IMG/VR virus record: IMGVR_UViG_3300017766_002845
Span: 1-41,029 of that record
DNA length: 41,029 bases
Strand: one strand, 5' to 3'
Origin: a virus
Taxonomy: Duplodnaviria > Caudoviricetes
This document shows, in pieces, positions 23,496 to 40,824 of this stretch. Under the pieces are notes generated by a model. That model had not been told where the DNA came from and made no database searches. It saw nothing but the letters and a program-made list of their open reading frames with translations. The position numbers were made by a program, and so were the translations under genes. Positions within the stretch are counted from its first letter, which is position 1, and each line of letters starts with the position of its first letter.

Positions 23496-24005
23496 TCAGA
23501 CCCAGAATTTAGCCATGGATTTTTTGTACGAGATGTACAGCGGGTGCTTGGGGTGGCCGGCCTGCGTGGTCTCCAGCACCAGCGGCATCACGCCCAGTTC
23601 TTCAGCCGTCGCGCGGACGAAGTTGACTCGGGCGATGACCTCCTTGCTGCTGAAGGCGCCCCACGCACATAGGAAACCGTTGCCGCCGTAGGTGTTCAGG
23701 ACGTGGCGCACCTGCGCGTCGTTCAGCGGCCCGACTGGGTAGCCGGCGCGGCGCATGTCCAGTGGGTCTGTGGCGCGGTAGGCAAACAGGTTGACCACCT
23801 CGATACCGGTGAAGCCGTGGCGGTCGGCGAAACCCACGCACTTCTTGATCGTGGCGTCGTCCTCGCTGCCGTCGGCCGTGCTCGGGTTGAGCATGACGAT
23901 GGGCAGCGTGGTGTGGACCTGGTCGAACTTGTCCCACCGGCGCCAGAGACGGTAGCGGAAAGCGTTGCAGTCGGAGATGAGTGCGCCGGTGTCGGTGTAG
24001 TTCAC
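23496..24005 (-). CDS. DUF1643 family protein
   Basis: RYRLWRRW, MLNPSTAD, DDATIKKC, VVNLFAYRATDP, AWG, PKHPLY. Confidence 0.9.
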   Translation of the reverse strand: MNYTDTGALISDCNAFRYRLWRRWDKFDQVHTTLPIVMLNPSTADGSEDDATIKKCVGFADRHGFTGIEVVNLFAYRATDPLDMRRAGYPVGPLNDAQVRHVLNTYGGNGFLCAWGAFSSKEVIARVNFVRATAEELGVMPLVLETTQAGHPKHPLYISYKKSMAKFWV

Positions 24006-26140
24006 TTGTGATACCTCTTCGTTTCAAAGCCGGCGGCTGCCAGCGGTGCGTCGGGCGCCCACTTCGGGGGCGTCGCCATGATCTCGGCCAGGCGGTCGGC
24101 GCTGTGCGCGTCGCTGTCTGGCACCTCGGTGACCAGTTCGTCGTGGACGTGCAGCACGATCTCGTAGCCCTCATTCTCGGCCGGCTGCATGCCGTTGGCC
24201 AGCACGTCACGAGCCCAGGCCTGGTCCCAGTTCTCGATGAACTTGCCGCCATAGCTCTTGATCCGCGCCCACTGCCGGGTGTACTGGTTCACGCCCAGGT
24301 AGCTGATCTGTCCGTCCTCTGCGACGCGCGGCGCCAGGTAGCACAGATACCGGCCGGACGGCAGGCGCACGCGCAGCCACGAGCCGTCGACCTGGACCTT
24401 GATGTGTCGGCCCACGGGGAAGGCTTCCTTGGGGTTGGCGATGGCCAGCTTCACGGCCTCCGAGGCGTCGGCCCACAGCTGCTTGGTCGCGGGGTGGGCC
24501 GTGCGCCACATCGCCTTCAGCGCCTCGCAGGCCACGTACACGTTGCGCTCAAGGCCCAGCGTGCGCTTCTTCTTGGTGGCCCACTCATGCATGCCGTAGG
24601 CCGAGGCCAGCACGTCCTTGCTGGCGGTGCTGTGCACAGCGTCGGCCAGCACGGCGAGGTCCATCTTGTACACGGCGGCGAAAGTGATGAAGGCAGCCAC
24701 GCCACCCTCGTAGCCCAGGCCGAGCTCCATCACCTTGCCGATCTGGCGCTTGTACCCGGTGGCGTCCTTCGGGTCGGTGTTGAACGCCCGGGCGTAGGCC
24801 AGCTTGTAGAGGTCGGGGCCCTTGCCCTGGTCGAAGTCGCGGAAGGCCTTGAGCTTCCACTCCTCGTTGCCGAGGTAGGCCAGCCCACGGCCCTCGATGT
24901 TGGACAAGTCGGCCACGGCCAGCTTCTTATGGGGCGGCGCGATGATCAGGCCGCGCACCAGGTTCGAGGTGAGCGCCATCACGTCGGTAAAGATGTCGTT
25001 GGCGAAGCCGCCCTTGAGCGCGGCCACGCCCTGCTCCTCGTACTCGCGCACCAGCGCTTCGTCGTCGGCCTCGAGATCCTTGGTGCTGCACAGGAAGTGG
25101 TCGGCCATGTGGCCCATGTCCGGCCGTGGCATGTTGTGCGGTTGCAGGATGCGACCGGCCCAGCGCGTGGTGCGCTGCGCCCCGGCGAACTGCGTGGTGT
25201 TGCGCACGCGGCCATCGGCCGAGGCGCTGTTGATCACGGCCTGGTACTTGGCGGTCGAGGTCTTGGTGGCCTCCAGGCGCAGCGAGATCAGCAGCTTGAC
25301 GCCCTCTGGGAGCTCGGGGTCTTCGAGCCGGCGGCGCAGCGTGTCGGCGCGCATGTCCGGCAGGTCGACGCCGTACTCGGCCAGGATGTAGAACAGCATG
25401 TCGTCGCGCTTGCTGGGCCCGCTCACGAGCCCGTCGGTGGCGTCCTGGACCCGGTGCTTCAGGCGGGCCTTCTCGATGTCCACCGCGCGCACGGCGGCGT
25501 GCGCCAGGTCGAGGTCGATGCAGATGCCCCGGTCGTTGACGCGCTGGTCAAGGCACCACAGGTTGTGCTCGGGGTGGCCGATGCGGTAGTTCCACTTGGG
25601 CAGCTTCTGGTGGATGGCGCGCATGGCCACGATGTCCTGGCGGCTGTACTCGAGGAACTCGTCCCACTCGTCTGGGTGCGTCCAGCGGGTGGCGCGGCGC
25701 TCCTTCATGTTCTTCGGGCGCGGCTTGCAGAACAGCTGGATCAGCTGCTTGCCGCGCTTGTCCTTTTGCTGGTCGCTGTCGATGTTGAGCGCGGCGCCGA
25801 TCTTGTCCAGGCCCCCCGGCAGCCCGTGCGCCATGGCCTGCACCATCGTGTCGATGATGCGCTCCGGGTCGACCTTGACGCCCCAGACGTGGCGCATCAG
25901 CGTCCGGTCGAAGTGGCTGTTGTGCAGCACCACCGGCGTGGTCTTCTCGTGCAGCCAGTGCGTGAGTTCTTCGCCGCGCTTGCGCGCGGTCAGGTCTTCG
26001 ACCACCGGCTCAGCGTCGCCCAACGCCCACTGCGCGATCATGATCTCGGTGCTGGGGTGCTCGGCGTAGCGGTGCGTGCCGGCGCTCTTCAGGTCGGCTT
26101 CGCTGAATGTCTCGGTGTCGAGGTAGAGGGGAGTGGTCAT
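24002..26140 (-). CDS. family A DNA polymerase with 3'-5' exonuclease
   Basis: DTET and HNSHFDR exonuclease motifs; DLSNIEGR (A), RQIGKVMELGLGY (B), VHDE (C). Confidence 0.95.
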   Translation of the reverse strand: MTTPLYLDTETFSEADLKSAGTHRYAEHPSTEIMIAQWALGDAEPVVEDLTARKRGEELTHWLHEKTTPVVLHNSHFDRTLMRHVWGVKVDPERIIDTMVQAMAHGLPGGLDKIGAALNIDSDQQKDKRGKQLIQLFCKPRPKNMKERRATRWTHPDEWDEFLEYSRQDIVAMRAIHQKLPKWNYRIGHPEHNLWCLDQRVNDRGICIDLDLAHAAVRAVDIEKARLKHRVQDATDGLVSGPSKRDDMLFYILAEYGVDLPDMRADTLRRRLEDPELPEGVKLLISLRLEATKTSTAKYQAVINSASADGRVRNTTQFAGAQRTTRWAGRILQPHNMPRPDMGHMADHFLCSTKDLEADDEALVREYEEQGVAALKGGFANDIFTDVMALTSNLVRGLIIAPPHKKLAVADLSNIEGRGLAYLGNEEWKLKAFRDFDQGKGPDLYKLAYARAFNTDPKDATGYKRQIGKVMELGLGYEGGVAAFITFAAVYKMDLAVLADAVHSTASKDVLASAYGMHEWATKKKRTLGLERNVYVACEALKAMWRTAHPATKQLWADASEAVKLAIANPKEAFPVGRHIKVQVDGSWLRVRLPSGRYLCYLAPRVAEDGQISYLGVNQYTRQWARIKSYGGKFIENWDQAWARDVLANGMQPAENEGYEIVLHVHDELVTEVPDSDAHSADRLAEIMATPPKWAPDAPLAAAGFETKRYHK

Positions 26141-26234
26141 AGGTCAGGAGTGGCGGGGCTCGATACCCAACGTCTTTGCTGCGCGTATAGCCAGCAACGC
26201 GATGCGCTTCGCCACACCCCTGACCTATGCCCAC
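26133..26234 (-). ncRNA. multi-branched structured RNA that sequesters the PolA start codon
   Basis: cataggtcagg/cctgacctatg (11 bp) plus gtggcg/cgccac stems enclosing ttgctg/cagcaa and ggg-tatcgag-ccc hairpins. Confidence 0.55.
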
Positions 26235-26240
26235 TGGGCA

Positions 26241-26390
26241 AGGAGCTATTCTGCAGATCCCCCGATATGCGTTGCCGCGTGGGCGGGGTACTTAAACGAT
26301 GGGGCCAAAGTCAGTGGCGGGCACCCCATCGTTGATCATCTGCAGCTTCTTAACCAGGTAGCTACCCTGGCAGGATTCCCCACGCCCCGC
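26241..26390 (-). ncRNA. structured non-coding element with nested or pseudoknotted stems
   Basis: aacgatgggg/ccccatcgtt, ctgcagat/atctgcag, ccagg-7 nt-cctgg, gcgggg/ccccgc; no credible ORF. Confidence 0.45.
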
Positions 26391-26407
26391 ATTGTTCTCG
26401 CTGTGTA

Positions 26408-26480
26408 GGGAAGGCACCGGAATCGAACCGGTCTCCAGCTGCTACTGCAGCTGCCACAGCGCCTTGCCGTGTTGCCCCCC
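26408..26480 (-). tRNA. atypical tRNA-like gene (pseudo-tRNA, non-canonical anticodon loop, no encoded CCA)
   Basis: GGGGGGC AA CACG-GCAAGGCGC-TGTG G CAGCT-GCAGTAGC-AGCTG GAG ACCGG-TTCGATT-CCGGT GCCTTCC C, a 73-nt cloverleaf. Confidence 0.7.
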
Positions 26481-26515
26481 GCACACAGCCCTCGTGAGAG
26501 GGCTGCGGGCTCAGT

Positions 26516-27106
26516 TTACGCGATGTCGTCGGCGTCGCTGCCGTCGCTCACGTCCTCGAACTCGTCCTCGCTCGCTGGGCGGCCGGCGCTGAAGGCGTCA
26601 CCGTCCTTGGCGAACTGCACACCGCGCAGCTGCGCGTTGATGCGGCTGCCACCTTTGGGGTGGTCCTTCTGCGGCCAGAACTCGATGCTCGCGTTCACGA
26701 AGCAGCCGGCGTAGACCCGGCCGCTGGTTTGCTTGAGCGGGGTGCGGTCGCGGTCCAGCACGGTGGGTGGCACGTCGGCCTGGGCGCCAGCGCTGATGAA
26801 GTAGTTGCCCTCGAAGCCGTCGAACTTGGCCTTGAGATCGCCGTCGTGCAGCGCCAGGCGGTCCTGCTTCTCGAGCAGCTTCTTCGTGGCGGGCCACTTG
26901 TCGCCCCACTTGCCGGCGCCCACGGCGTCCATCTTCGAGCGGATCTCGGCGATCTGCGGGTGGTCCGTCGGGATGATCAGCGTGGCGCCGAAGCGGGGCT
27001 TGTCGCCGGGGTTCACGGCCTTGGCTTCCCACAGTTCAGGGAAGGCCAGGCGCACGCCTTTGAGGAGCATGCGGCCGGGGGTGTCGGTGGTTTTGGTGTC
27101 GCTCAT
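26516..27106 (-). CDS. single-stranded DNA-binding protein (DUF2815)
   Basis: VRLAFPELW, LHDGD, VYAGCFVNA, LRGVQFAKDGDAF, acidic tail. Confidence 0.9.
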   Translation of the reverse strand: MSDTKTTDTPGRMLLKGVRLAFPELWEAKAVNPGDKPRFGATLIIPTDHPQIAEIRSKMDAVGAGKWGDKWPATKKLLEKQDRLALHDGDLKAKFDGFEGNYFISAGAQADVPPTVLDRDRTPLKQTSGRVYAGCFVNASIEFWPQKDHPKGGSRINAQLRGVQFAKDGDAFSAGRPASEDEFEDVSDGSDADDIA

Positions 27107-27133
27107 GGGGATGGTCTTTCAATGGTTGTGCTG

Positions 27134-28411
27134 TTAAGCGATGTCGTCGTTGGTCACGTCTGCGAAGTCATCCACCGCCGGTGTGACCTGAATGGCCGGC
27201 CGTGGATCAGAGACGGGTGCCACATGAGGCTTGCCGTCGGTCTGTGTGATGAGCGCCTGCAGCTTGGGCCACTGGCGCTTGCCGATCTTCTCTGCCTTGG
27301 CCAGCTTGTCGGCCGTGGTGGGGGAGATCAGTTTCAGGTCGTACATTTCCTCCTGCTTGAGCCTGAACGTCTTGAGCATTTCCTCGGCGGCCTTGGCGTC
27401 GCTCCAGGTGCGGTTGCCTCGTTTGCCCTGCACCACCTTGTAGCCCGGCACGTCCTCGCCAGCCAGCAGACGGCGGTCGGTCTCGGCGCGCACCGCCTTG
27501 CACCAGTCCTCGATCTGGTCGACCTTGCTCATGCACGCGGCGAGCCACGCGACGGTGTCGTCCTTGCCAGGCGTGGCGATCTCGTCCAGGAAGTCGTCTG
27601 GCGCAGCAGCAACGAGACCACTGCCGCCTACTTCGGTCTCGACCACATTGCGCAGCGCCGGGCAGGTGGCCTTGACGCGGCAGAAGCGGCAGCTGTCCTC
27701 GGCCGGGCGCAGGAACGTCGACTCCCACTCGCTGTCGCCAGCGCGGTAGGTGCTGATGGCCGAGAGCGCGGACATGGCGGCCGGGGTCGCCTCGGTCTTG
27801 GCCCAGGCCAGCAGGTCTTCGATGGTGCAGTCCCACTCGCTGGGCTTCTCGTTGATGCGCGGCTGGCTGATCACCATGCGCACGCGCTTGAAGTCGCCCA
27901 GGTCGCCGAACTGCGCCAGCGCGCCGAGGGCGTACAGGCTCATCTGGTCGTTGCCTTCGGCGTCCACCTGCACGCCCATGCCGGTCTTCAGGTCGATGAC
28001 GATGATCTCGTCGCCGCGCAGGATCACGGCGTCGCCGGTGCCCCAGGCCAGGTCGGCCTTCACGCCGAGGTAGCTGCTGTAGTTCAGCTTGCTCTCGACC
28101 ATGAGGTAGCCGTCCTCGCCGGTGTACTCACGCACATGGCGCAGGTACACGTTGATGCACTCGGCCATCTCCTCGCTCTTGACGATGGTGAAGCCCTCGC
28201 ACTCCACCTCTTCGTCGTAGGAGATGGCCATGCTGTTCACGCCGTAGGCGCTCAGCAACAGCTGGGCGGCCCAGTCGTGCGCCACGGTGCCCCAGGCGGC
28301 GTACTGGCTGGTGGAGTCGGGCTTGCCCTTCTCCATGGCCAGCTTGCCGGGGCACAGGCGAATGGCTTTGAAGCCACTCGCACTGAGCAGTGCGTGTGCT
28401 GGTTCGGTCAT
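27134..28411 (-). CDS. DUF2800 Cas4-like PD-(D/E)xK exonuclease
   Basis: HALLSAS..CPG, GTVAH, WGTGD, IDLKTGMG, QMSLYALGA, CRFCRVKATC; GGAG RBS before ATG 28411. Confidence 0.9.
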   Translation of the reverse strand: MTEPAHALLSASGFKAIRLCPGKLAMEKGKPDSTSQYAAWGTVAHDWAAQLLLSAYGVNSMAISYDEEVECEGFTIVKSEEMAECINVYLRHVREYTGEDGYLMVESKLNYSSYLGVKADLAWGTGDAVILRGDEIIVIDLKTGMGVQVDAEGNDQMSLYALGALAQFGDLGDFKRVRMVISQPRINEKPSEWDCTIEDLLAWAKTEATPAAMSALSAISTYRAGDSEWESTFLRPAEDSCRFCRVKATCPALRNVVETEVGGSGLVAAAPDDFLDEIATPGKDDTVAWLAACMSKVDQIEDWCKAVRAETDRRLLAGEDVPGYKVVQGKRGNRTWSDAKAAEEMLKTFRLKQEEMYDLKLISPTTADKLAKAEKIGKRQWPKLQALITQTDGKPHVAPVSDPRPAIQVTPAVDDFADVTNDDIA

Positions 28412-35812: not shown

Positions 35813-35903
35813 AAGGACCGTCAGGCGAGGCATCTGCCGCGCAGCCGAAAGGCTGTACGGGGTGGTGCTCGTGGCAGGTGTCTCACCTGACGGCCCTTTT
35901 CTT
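35813..35903 (+). ncRNA. long hairpin leader/attenuator upstream of the primase
   Basis: About 29-bp imperfect stem enclosing a cagcc-gaaa-ggctg GNRA hairpin, followed by ttttctt. Confidence 0.55.
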
Positions 35904-38789: not shown

Positions 38790-39368
38790 ATGACTGACGA
38801 CTCCTGGGTCCAACCCTTCCTCCAATCGCTCGCTGCCACCGGCATCGTGTCCCGCGCCTGCGAAGCAGCCTGCGTGACCCGAGCCCGGGTGATGGCGCGC
38901 AAAGCCAAGGACGCCGACTTCGCGGCCGGCTTCGAGGACGCCATGGAGCAGGCTGTGGACATGGCCGAGTCGGAGGCCTGGCGCCGCGCCATCAAGGGTG
39001 TGACGCGCATCGTGATGCACAAGGGCATCCCGGTGTGGCAGGTCAAGCGCGTGGCCCAGCTGGACCCCGACACGCTAGAGCCCACCGGCGAATTCCGCTT
39101 TGAGCACGTCCTGGACGACAACGGCCAGCCCATCCCCTACGTCGAGCACGAGTACAGCGACGCGCTGCTCGGCCGGATCTTGGGCGCGCACCGCAAGGCC
39201 TACAGCACCGAGCGCACCGAGATCACGGGCGCCGATGGTGGCGCGCTGAAGATCGACAGCGGCAAGCGCGCAGAGCGCATGCAAGCCCTCATGGCCATGG
39301 CAGCATCACGACGGGACGAAGCGCGGCGCCTGGAGGCCATGGCGGGCGAGCACGGGGACATTGCCTGA
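38790..39368 (+). CDS. terminase small subunit
   Basis: [43 protein letters not shown]. Confidence 0.85.
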
Positions 39369-40039
39369 TGCCGCGCGCACCGAACCAACGCCAGGCCTCG
39401 CCCTTCGGCTTTGCGCAGCCAGGCGCCACCGGGCCCACAGGACCAGCAGGCCCTCGTGGGCTGCAGGGTGAGATAGGGCCAGCAGGCCCCACCGGGCCGA
39501 TGGGACCGCCTGGCCCAGCCGGCGTGATGGGCCCAGCAGGCATAGGCCTGCCAGGCGCCACTGGCCCAGCGGGGGAGCGAGGCGCCAAGGGCGATACAGG
39601 CGACACCGGGCCGCAAGGACCAACCGGCCTCACTGGTGCGACAGGTGCTCAAGGCCCACAGGGTGAGCGCGGACTGCAAGGCGATACCGGCCCAGCTGGC
39701 CCCACCGGCGCCACTGGACCACAGGGCCCAGCTGGTGCGACAGGCGCCACTGGCCCAGCAGGCACAGGTGGTGGCGCATCACCCATCGCCATCACCATCA
39801 CGGTGCCAGCCCCGACCTTCTACGACGAGGAGGTCGTCGCAGTGCCGGGGCTCACGACCGACAGCGTGGTGCGTGCGGCGCTTGCACTGCGCACCGATGC
39901 CGAGAATGACATCGAACACGCAACCGACATCGGGCTGCGCCTGTTCGCTCAGGCCGAGGTGGACCAGATCCGTTTCGTGCTGACAGCTGACACCCGATTC
40001 ACAGGCCCCATCCCCATCGTCTACGAGGTCACACCATGA
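39368..40039 (+). CDS. collagen-like protein
   Basis: About 37 Gly-X-Y triplets with one interruption, plus a globular C-terminal domain. Confidence 0.85.
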
Positions 40040-40824
40040 GCATCTTCCGCAACCTAGCAGGCGCCTTCGTGCCCGTGCGTGAGCAACGCGCAATCAGCGG
40101 CACGCTCAACGTGCTCAACGGTGAGGTCGTGCTCGACGTCAACGGCGACCAAGCAGCGCTGGTGTACATCGGCAGCACGTCCTTCATCGGCACGCTGGAG
40201 TTCACGGGCTCGGCCGACGGCACGAACTTCTTCCCCATCATGGCCTACCCCTACGCGGTGGGCTCAGTGGGTGGCACGCTGCCGCTGTCGGCCCAGCCCG
40301 TGCTGGTCGACGCGCTCGTGGCAGCCAACACGGCGCGCGCCTACTCGGTGCCCTGTGGCCAGCTGCGTAAGGTGCGCGTGCGGGCCTCGGCCTACACCTC
40401 GGGCTCTGCGCAGTGCACGATCAACAGCGACACGATGGACCCGCTCAACCCGGGTGTGAACTCTCGGCCATCCACGCTGTGCGTGAGCGCCACCGGCGCT
40501 GCAGGTGCTGCGGTCACCGCCACGCTGCCGTTGGTGGCTGGCCTGCGCCATGTGGTCGACTACATCCAGGTCACACGCTCGGCCACCGCCGCGCTGACCG
40601 CCTCGGCCACACCGGTGGTGGTGACGACCACGGGCCTGCCGGGCAACCCCGCGCTGACCTTCGGCCAGGACGTGGCGGGCATCGGTGTCGACAAGGAAGT
40701 CAAGCTGGACTTCGGCAGTTCGGGCATCGCAGCCACCGCGCTAGCCACCGCCTCCACGGTGGTGTGCCCAGCCTACACCGGCGTGATCTGGCGCGTGAAC
40801 GTGGCATACCGGCTGGGCGCATGA
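40036..40824 (+). CDS. beta-rich hypothetical protein, probably virion-associated
   Basis: 262 aa; [15 protein letters not shown] and [13 protein letters not shown] jelly-roll-like motifs; ATGA-coupled. Confidence 0.7.

Follow-up and report, generated by a model that had tools for sequence, protein, structure and literature searches.

What is an RNA with the outline of a tRNA and a closed anticodon arm doing between two replication genes of a tailed virus? The question is raised by IMG/VR record IMGVR_UViG_3300017766_002845 (Duplodnaviria; Caudoviricetes), of which the whole stretch of 41,029 nucleotides was analysed and is here called the window. The window is the entire virus record, 92% complete and 65% GC, and its gene content resembles that of BPP-1 and APSE, Pfam identifying a Bbp16, a virion protein of 2993 aa, an SNF2 helicase and a protein similar to gp14. 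A family A polymerase, an Enc34-type single-stranded DNA-binding protein (SSB) and a DUF2800 nuclease are also encoded (Pfam). The SSB and polymerase genes are separated by a spacer of 375 nt, and the cloverleaf lies inside it, on the coding strand of both genes. Neither a sigma-70 promoter nor a U-tailed terminator was found in a sequence scan of this spacer. Elsewhere in the window, a collagen-repeat protein (tail-fibre-like by PHROGs) and a 262-aa ORF of no known kind are encoded at 39368-40824 (+), directly 3' of the small terminase gene and distant from the tail module.

Table 1. Positions of the elements in and around the SSB-polymerase spacer (numbering of the window)
Feature	Position	Strand	Description
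SSB gene (upstream)	26516..27106	-	Enc34-type single-stranded DNA-binding protein (PF10991); homolog of BPP-1 bbp40, 48% identity to bbp40
Hairpin H1	26486..26505	-	8-bp stem, 4-nt loop, 10 nt past the SSB stop; no U tail
Cassette S1	26400..26489	-	closing helix of 8 bp, C:C mismatch (-1/73) and 7-bp acceptor; tRNA-shaped insert
tRNA-shaped core	26408..26480	-	acceptor 26474-26480 with 26409-26415; C73 at 26408
D-like arm	26455..26471	-	4-6 bp, GG in loop; without A14, purine 15 and A21
Sealed anticodon arm	26436..26453	-	7 bp, closed by a 4-nt loop; identical in its inner 4 pairs to the anticodon stem of host tRNA-Ala(UGC)
Canonical T arm	26416..26432	-	5 bp, 7-nt loop; directly stacked on the acceptor/closing helix
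Element M	26240..26390	-	structured RNA of ~150 nt with pseudoknot pairings, directly after S1; no Rfam family
Cassette S2	26132..26235	-	second closing helix of ~21 bp, buries the polA ATG; z -5.98
polA gene (downstream)	24002..26140	-	family A DNA polymerase, BPP-1 bbp42-like

A cloverleaf without an open anticodon loop

A sequence-only reading of this DNA had described a cloverleaf without naming its strand. All the features that it claimed are present, and they are found on the minus strand, read from 26480 to 26408. The acceptor has 7 bp, among them G3:U70 and G4:U69, and is followed by A8; the D stem counts 4 bp (6 bp in the predicted fold), and its loop contains GG. The 8-nt anticodon loop zips up, which gives a 7-bp stem capped by 4 nt; the variable region is 3 nt long, the 5-bp T arm is perfect, position 73 is a C and CCA is not encoded. 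The cloverleaf is both the minimum free energy (MFE) structure and the centroid of that strand (-39.3 kcal/mol, 67% of the ensemble), with a z of -3.72 and 1 of 200 shuffles equally stable, and the plus strand folds more poorly (z -2.08). With a model built from 45 phage tRNAs, the core scored 20.0 bits (E 0.0034) and was the top match in the window, the runner-up reaching 12.1 bits. A detector of a T arm plus acceptor, designed after the element was known, picked out a single site in the window and none in 300 shuffles of the window or 20000 shuffles of the spacer. The Rfam search gave 0 hits for the core at cut-off, tRNA-Sec coming to 23.3 bits against a cut-off of 47. Assembly error is excluded by a separately assembled contig from sequencing run X1 (possibly the source sample), which is identical over 25632-27200 and thus across the cloverleaf; X1 alone, among the 4 runs compared, covers it. 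No RNA run was among the sequencing runs listed as containing the element; neither result bears on expression.

These controls bear on two further readings, in which the element is either a chance fold or the relic of an attP site, derived from a host tRNA gene by its 3' half. The perfect T arm fits such an origin, one host tRNA-Cys gene having exactly the same T arm, and BPP-1 relatives can be temperate. However, no integrase was found among the ORFs scanned in the window (51 by Pfam and 34 by PHROGs, in a record 92% complete). With 3 mismatches allowed, matches to the 24-nt 3' half were found in only 6 of 301 genomes, 5 of them outside tRNAs, and both the shuffle controls and the E value of the tRNA model speak against a chance fold. 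Both origins are very improbable and can be regarded as largely refuted already.

Compared with canonical tRNA (RF00005), the core has the cloverleaf with a 7/5 acceptor-T branch and a canonical T loop, and it lacks U8, A14, A21, U33, a purine at 37 and an open 7-nt anticodon loop. The loop is predicted to be zipped with pair probabilities of 0.9-1.0, and from this modelling the core is predicted to be unable to read codons. A +1 frameshift suppressor tRNA has an open 8-nt loop that keeps U33 on an otherwise normal tRNA body. The core does contain an 8-nt loop in its 5-bp register, and ARAGORN calls a tRNA-Pro(agg) on 26408-26493 from another register of the same bases. That register differs from the predicted fold, has A33 and C37 and disrupts H1 and the closing helix; also, U33 is at least 90% conserved in the 45 phage tRNAs, and a score under the Rfam cut-off stands against a working tRNA of either kind, which is hardly credible. 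The frameshift tRNA that the sequence-only reading had entertained is therefore dropped for its missing U33 and zipped loop, and its other suggestion, a non-decoding tRNA mimic that is not the outcome of random decay, is supported by stems that keep pairing through two-sided changes relative to tRNA-Ala(UGC).

Two other classes of odd RNA were compared and rejected. YrlA Y RNA has a permuted arm order and a closed acceptor; the arms of the core follow the order D, anticodon, T, and the core gave no Rfam hit. Allo-tRNAs, as described in PMC7609411, are odd cloverleafs, some with G3:U70 like the core, and an 8/4 fold of the core lies 0.9 kcal/mol above the MFE. However, allo-tRNAs can decode and combine an anticodon arm with a long variable arm, whereas the MFE of the core is a 7/5 fold with three arms only and no open loop. 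Overall, the element is a real tRNA-shaped RNA, probably under selection. Covariation of the insert is unmeasurable on a single sequence, for which blastn against cultured phages (polA matches only) and a pattern scan of viral contigs (0 matches) yielded no homolog.

A closing stem with varied inserts

The acceptor does not end the structure. Beyond the C:C mismatch at -1/73 it is extended by 8 further pairs, which the sequence-only reading had missed, so that S1 has a closing helix of 16-17 bp with one mismatch, or ~21 bp with the stacked T stem. The cassette of 90 nt folds at -52.4 kcal/mol with a z of -5.09, and 0 of 200 shuffles were as good. The leader-trailer helix pairs the 3' end with probabilities of 0.63-0.98 in a 140-nt context, and the last 4 nt of H1 are common to the closing helix.

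A hairpin and a long stem after the SSB stop were also found in relatives including BPP-1, in which they lie downstream of bbp40 and enclose a non-tRNA insert of 40 nt; the hairpin that precedes the slot in relatives is of the H1 type. Scans anchored on SSB and polymerase gave 252 usable SSB-downstream regions and 85 clusters of long stems, from which 52 cassettes were hand-picked and 33 clusters were excluded as coding sequence, as lying inside M or as plain hairpins. The stems of these 52 cassettes are 13-30 bp long (median 18), with a 5'-strand motif common to 31 and ACCA in the 3' strand in 33; G.U pairs are scarce in them (16 of 416 inner pairs). The closing stem of the window deviates from the family motif in having lost ACCA. 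A loose pattern scan gave 108 distinct matches, 15 of which passed the stem filter and only 2 of which resembled true cassettes. The inserts range from 6 to 111 nt and fall into 45 unrelated groups. A hairpin module of ~26 nt recurs in 7 of the 52 cassettes, some in the first slot and some in the second (L440, L457, L472, L484, L489, L491 and L173), which suggests that inserts move between phages.

The sequence-only reading had named ordinary tRNAs at orthologous loci as evidence that would count against it. None was found in the slot by ARAGORN at 20 loci, and the tRNA model gave 9 matches over 99 chosen loci, none of them an ordinary tRNA in the SSB/PolA locus. Since the orthologous slot holds mostly non-tRNA inserts, the conserved function is shifted to the closing stem; the stem being constant and the insert variable, it is likely the stem that does the common job. 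A T-loop motif occurs in 5 of the 52 inserts (the window, L117, L428, L227 and L201). L227 and L201 came from scans biased towards T loops and were left out of the unbiased count, in which, of the 48 other cassettes, only that of L117 bears a stem-stacked T arm and only that of L428 has a T-loop hairpin placed elsewhere.

The same-slot inserts of L117, L227 and L201 are tRNA-shaped (35.4, 34.6 and 22.5 bits, respectively); in each of them the T arm stacks on the stem, and the anticodon arm departs from the standard form. With L269, L291, L255 and L200, found in other places and selected by us from pattern hits for their non-ordinary look, they make 7 other cores of 22.5-53.7 bits. All 7 keep the T loop and the D-loop GG, and their anticodon arm is inserted, shortened or closed. 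A link between stem mounting and a broken anticodon is suggested. The stricter rule that a stem-mounted core always has a broken anticodon failed when 50 distinct hits of one pattern scan were sorted by an objective rule, a canonical arm being present in 1 of 3 mounted (L265) vs 24 of 39 unmounted cores (Fisher p 0.56).

The tRNA-shaped insert of L227:803-890 (-), from a distant phage (SSB 33% identical), shows CAU within an 8-nt loop on a 9-bp stem and lies immediately ahead of the polymerase ATG. L117:1437-1535 and L255:803-904 have similar D arms, inserts of 35-38 nt that replace the anticodon loop and a short motif in common, and are possibly one RNA family; a match of L117 to Achromobacter phage Mano was rejected as an ordinary tRNA-Lys beside an integrase and not in the slot. 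L265:801-895 (-) is a canonical-looking tRNA with a UUA (ochre) anticodon, the leader of which can pair with the CCA trailer, and L233 is another tRNA with a stop anticodon. More than 20 tRNA genes are densely clustered at G025:C9:140500-145500 (L579, L590, L598 and L599), several of them low-scoring or unusually long (99-112 nt).

Probable alanine ancestry and the likelihood of charging

The stems were compared one by one with 107 tRNAs from three Burkholderiales-order genomes (30 loci each, not full sets). tRNA-Ala ranked top in 3 of 3 host tRNA sets, and the best match, the tRNA-Ala(UGC) of L517, agrees at 24 of 29 stem positions, a value reached by 219 of 20000 null draws (p ~0.01). In the register that starts from 26479, the core has 13 of the 14 acceptor bases of bacterial tRNA-Ala(UGC) (RF00005) and 8 of the 10 anticodon-stem bases with a swapped 27:43 pair, together with G3.U70 and the T loop. 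It differs in the 4-nt anticodon loop in place of 7 nt, in a T stem one base short at the junction with the acceptor, in the re-spelled D arm, in the missing U8, A14, A21, U33, A73 and CCA and in its sealed ends. The favoured fold is shifted by one base, and G3:U70 is present in both possible registers, persisting in the favoured one because C71 is now U. Relative to tRNA-Ala(UGC), two-sided changes that preserve pairing are found at 27:43 and at the T-stem pairs 49:65 and 50:64, and the D stem is entirely re-spelled yet paired. tRNA-Cys was also considered as ancestor and comes a close second: Ala outranks it in two of the sets, and in the third it ties with the second Ala. G48 occurs in 3/3 Cys vs 0/32 others in a pattern-selected set, and in 2/4 Cys vs 3/103 others in the wider set. 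Judged by its sequence, the insert is likely derived from a tRNA-Ala gene. The alanine link of the sequence-only reading is thereby supported as ancestry, and because the stems best match host tRNA-Ala, G3:U70 is explained as a feature that was probably inherited.

A captured tRNA gene may also have no role of its own. It could be drifting in a tolerant slot in which only the closing stem matters, the insert merely staying folded. Inserts of just 6-10 nt exist, no homolog of the present one was found, and U8, A14, A21, U33, A73 and CCA are all gone, as drift would allow; even the sealed arm coincides in part with a palindrome that is nearly repeated in tandem over 12 nt (26433-26456), which gives a hairpin without selection. 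However, full pairing is kept in all four stems although they have changed heavily, in part by two-sided changes against tRNA-Ala, the T loop and the D-loop GG are intact in spite of the re-spelling of the D arm, and retention of the top half is also seen in L117, L227 and L201. Drift is unlikely.

The sequence-only reading had further regarded the core as chargeable, on the strength of G3:U70. Five bacterial alanine identity elements are tabulated in PMC9976931 (G2-C71, G3.U70, A73, G4-C69 and G20), which also states that alanylation can be conferred by G3.U70 alone and that A73 matters for alanylation in minihelices. The favoured register has two of the five, G2-C71 and G3.U70; it has C73, G4:U69 and C20 in place of the other three, and it offers no free CCA, the trailer being paired. 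G4-C69 holds solely in the shifted register, where G2-C71 is lost. In addition, G3:U70 is present in 0/7 of the other tRNA-shaped cores, and the spacing from T stem to ACCA varies among cores (7, 8 or 9 nt; no ACCA in the window), which counts against charging as their common purpose. The case for charging is weak, and the core is predicted not to be charged.

In the fuller version of that claim, the core would be excised, CCA-tailed and charged with alanine, and would act in trans as a non-decoding decoy for tRNA-targeting defence or alter the supply of AlaRS and EF-Tu. The alanine ancestry (p ~0.01), the sufficiency of G3.U70 reported in PMC9976931 and the presence of this pair in both registers of a cassette whose family otherwise rarely uses G.U would suit it, as would the C:C mismatch placed exactly at -1/73, leaving a 12-bp acceptor-T branch. 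The recurring non-tRNA module also suggests that inserts can be selected cargo. Nevertheless, C73 replaces the A73 that counts in minihelices, G4:U69, the missing CCA, the paired 3' end and the other cores all speak against it, and the wobbles are explained by two adjacent C-to-U changes within a C run. A sealed loop would, moreover, leave an anticodon nuclease nothing to recognise. A charged decoy is, like drift, unlikely.

Structured neighbours and a putative processing stem

S1 is followed by element M, copies of which occur in other SSB-PolA spacers, including L445:1039-1190, L466:1131-1283 and L011:3575-3729. A motif search gave 31 candidates, of which 21 were aligned with the window copy (22 sequences) and 10 were dropped (3 wrongly delimited, 3 false and 4 longer variants). 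Of the 14 predicted pairs, 13 showed two-sided changes. A structure of 26 pairs, two helices of which are pseudoknots between leader and loop, was derived from the very alignment used to score it and had 95.4% of cells paired over the 22 sequences and two-sided changes in 22 of 26 pairs, as against 64% paired in shuffles and 33-44% when slid. Two hairpin loops of M are paired to its first 12 nt, and in most copies the 3' tail offers a partner to a third loop. No match to M was found in cultured phages or in Rfam. M might act as an antiterminator, as a ribozyme or as an antisense RNA of the C4/CI kind, and the comparative support for it is much stronger than that for the cloverleaf. A variant of M in the SSB-downstream spacers of L001, L026, L048, L104, L111, L114, L119 and L462 has a terminal hairpin with a GGAAAGAC loop and also a boxA-like stretch, hinting at antitermination. 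A different conserved structured stretch of ~150 nt follows the SSB gene in Acinetobacter-type prophage loci (L062-L094, e.g. L067, L080 and L183).

The second cassette, S2, has an insert that is weakly tRNA-shaped (U8 and D-like and T-like hairpins; 11.4 bits, E 0.63); as a second cloverleaf it was rejected for this low score and its rod-like MFE. A cut within S2 would yield a nearly leaderless polA message, and no Shine-Dalgarno sequence is evident. A third cassette with the same stem type lies at 35813-35898 (+) of the window (z -7.33), at the start of an ORF for a VapE-domain primase/helicase.

The three elements might act together in cis, S1, M and S2 refolding and setting polymerase expression or RNA polymerase read-through with no RNA released. 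The burial of the polA ATG in S2 with no evident Shine-Dalgarno sequence would fit such a leader, and the pairing of M loops with the leader of M is reminiscent of C4/CI antisense control. The D arm is also able to pair with the 3' end of M. In a fold of the whole spacer (395 nt) this pairing has a probability of ~1, and long-range pairs replace the acceptor and the D arm while the sealed arm and the T arm stay; the program used ignores the pseudoknots of M and co-transcriptional folding, which bears on this fold. In relatives, however, S1, M or S2 are missing in varied combinations and the pairing of D arm with M was not seen by eye; by a rough estimate it is within chance for a GC-rich stretch of 375 nt, and a perfect T loop is left unexplained. 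A leader acting only in cis is quite unlikely.

Phages are known to release small RNAs from operon leaders, the CI RNA of P4 being cut out by host tRNA-processing enzymes. The reading preferred here, given a probability of about 45%, is that the tRNA-shaped insert of S1 neither decodes nor is charged and that the stem carrying it, in the spacer from SSB to polymerase, serves for processing by RNase III and RNase P. S1 would be transcribed together with the leftward replication genes, and RNase III would cut the stack of ~21 bp (8 bp, mismatch, 7 bp and the 5-bp T stem). A second cut could be made by RNase P at G1, guided by the elbow of D-loop GG and T loop and by the -1/73 mismatch. Through such cuts at the helix, host RNases would process the transcript of the replication genes, and the insert would be freed as a small RNA; selection would preserve the elbow and the pairing, and the sealed anticodon would hold the RNA off the ribosome.

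Cleavage is proposed by analogy. RNase III is described as requiring a helix of at least 11 bp, ideally 22, and as processing the polycistronic transcripts of T7 (PMC1540722 and PMC3867540), and the S1 helix has 16-17 bp, or ~21 with the T stem. Like the stems of T7 transcripts in the same sources, the cassettes are long intergenic helices, of 13-30 bp and with a common stem motif, among early and replication genes; unlike them, they have multi-branched, lineage-specific inserts, some of them tRNA-derived. The proposed RNase P cut at G1 is modelled on plant mitochondrial t-elements (PMC1920247 and PMC11658184) and on mascRNA/menRNA (PMC8457004). As in S1, a tRNA shape lies inside a longer transcript with no encoded CCA, the top half is kept and the decoding arm is degenerate. 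The t-elements are cut and CCA-tailed and are not aminoacylated, according to PMC11658184. In mascRNA the acceptor stem is extended and has a bulge adjoining the cut, which promotes processing by a eukaryotic enzyme (PMC8457004); the acceptor of S1 is likewise extended, past the mismatch at -1/73. In contrast to these RNAs, S1 lies in a phage operon, its 8-bp extension belongs to a stem family with swappable inserts and the enzymes would be bacterial. The C4 antisense RNA of P1/P7 (RF01695) is a phage small RNA from an operon leader and an RNase P substrate, the latter going by a reference title in PMC4919922; S1 differs in that the Rfam search gave no match to C4/CI family models and no antisense target of the insert was found, and M is the better analogue.

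Some observations sit uneasily with a processing stem that bears a tRNA-shaped insert. Such inserts are rare (1 of 48 other cassettes in the unbiased count), the acceptor and D arm yield to long-range pairs in the whole-spacer fold, the closing stem is without the family ACCA and has 4 nt in common with H1, the insert has no homolog, tRNA-Cys is a close second as ancestor and a paired leader may hinder bacterial RNase P. In a broader and rather unlikely proposal, a conserved closing helix of BPP-1-like phages would launch interchangeable small RNAs, that of S1 being a tRNA whose anticodon is sealed but which can be charged with alanine and would serve in trans to decoy tRNA-targeting host defences, beside an uncatalogued RNA with a double pseudoknot. 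A literature search, which reached few subscription papers, found neither stem-mounted tRNA-like inserts nor the SSB-PolA slot described in phages; PMC5737381 may describe motifs near DUF2800/DUF2815 genes, none being named in its main text and its supplement lying outside the search.

Should the stem prove to be a processing site whose cargo can be swapped, small phages would hold hidden, fast-changing non-coding genes in a fixed slot, an RNA counterpart of accessory-gene hotspots. Scanners for tRNAs miscall or miss such inserts, as ARAGORN does here in calling tRNA-Pro and Rfam in giving no hit. The slot is also present in cultured BPP-1 and is thus open to experiment, and a charged but non-decoding tRNA, if true, would be a new kind of phage counter-defence.
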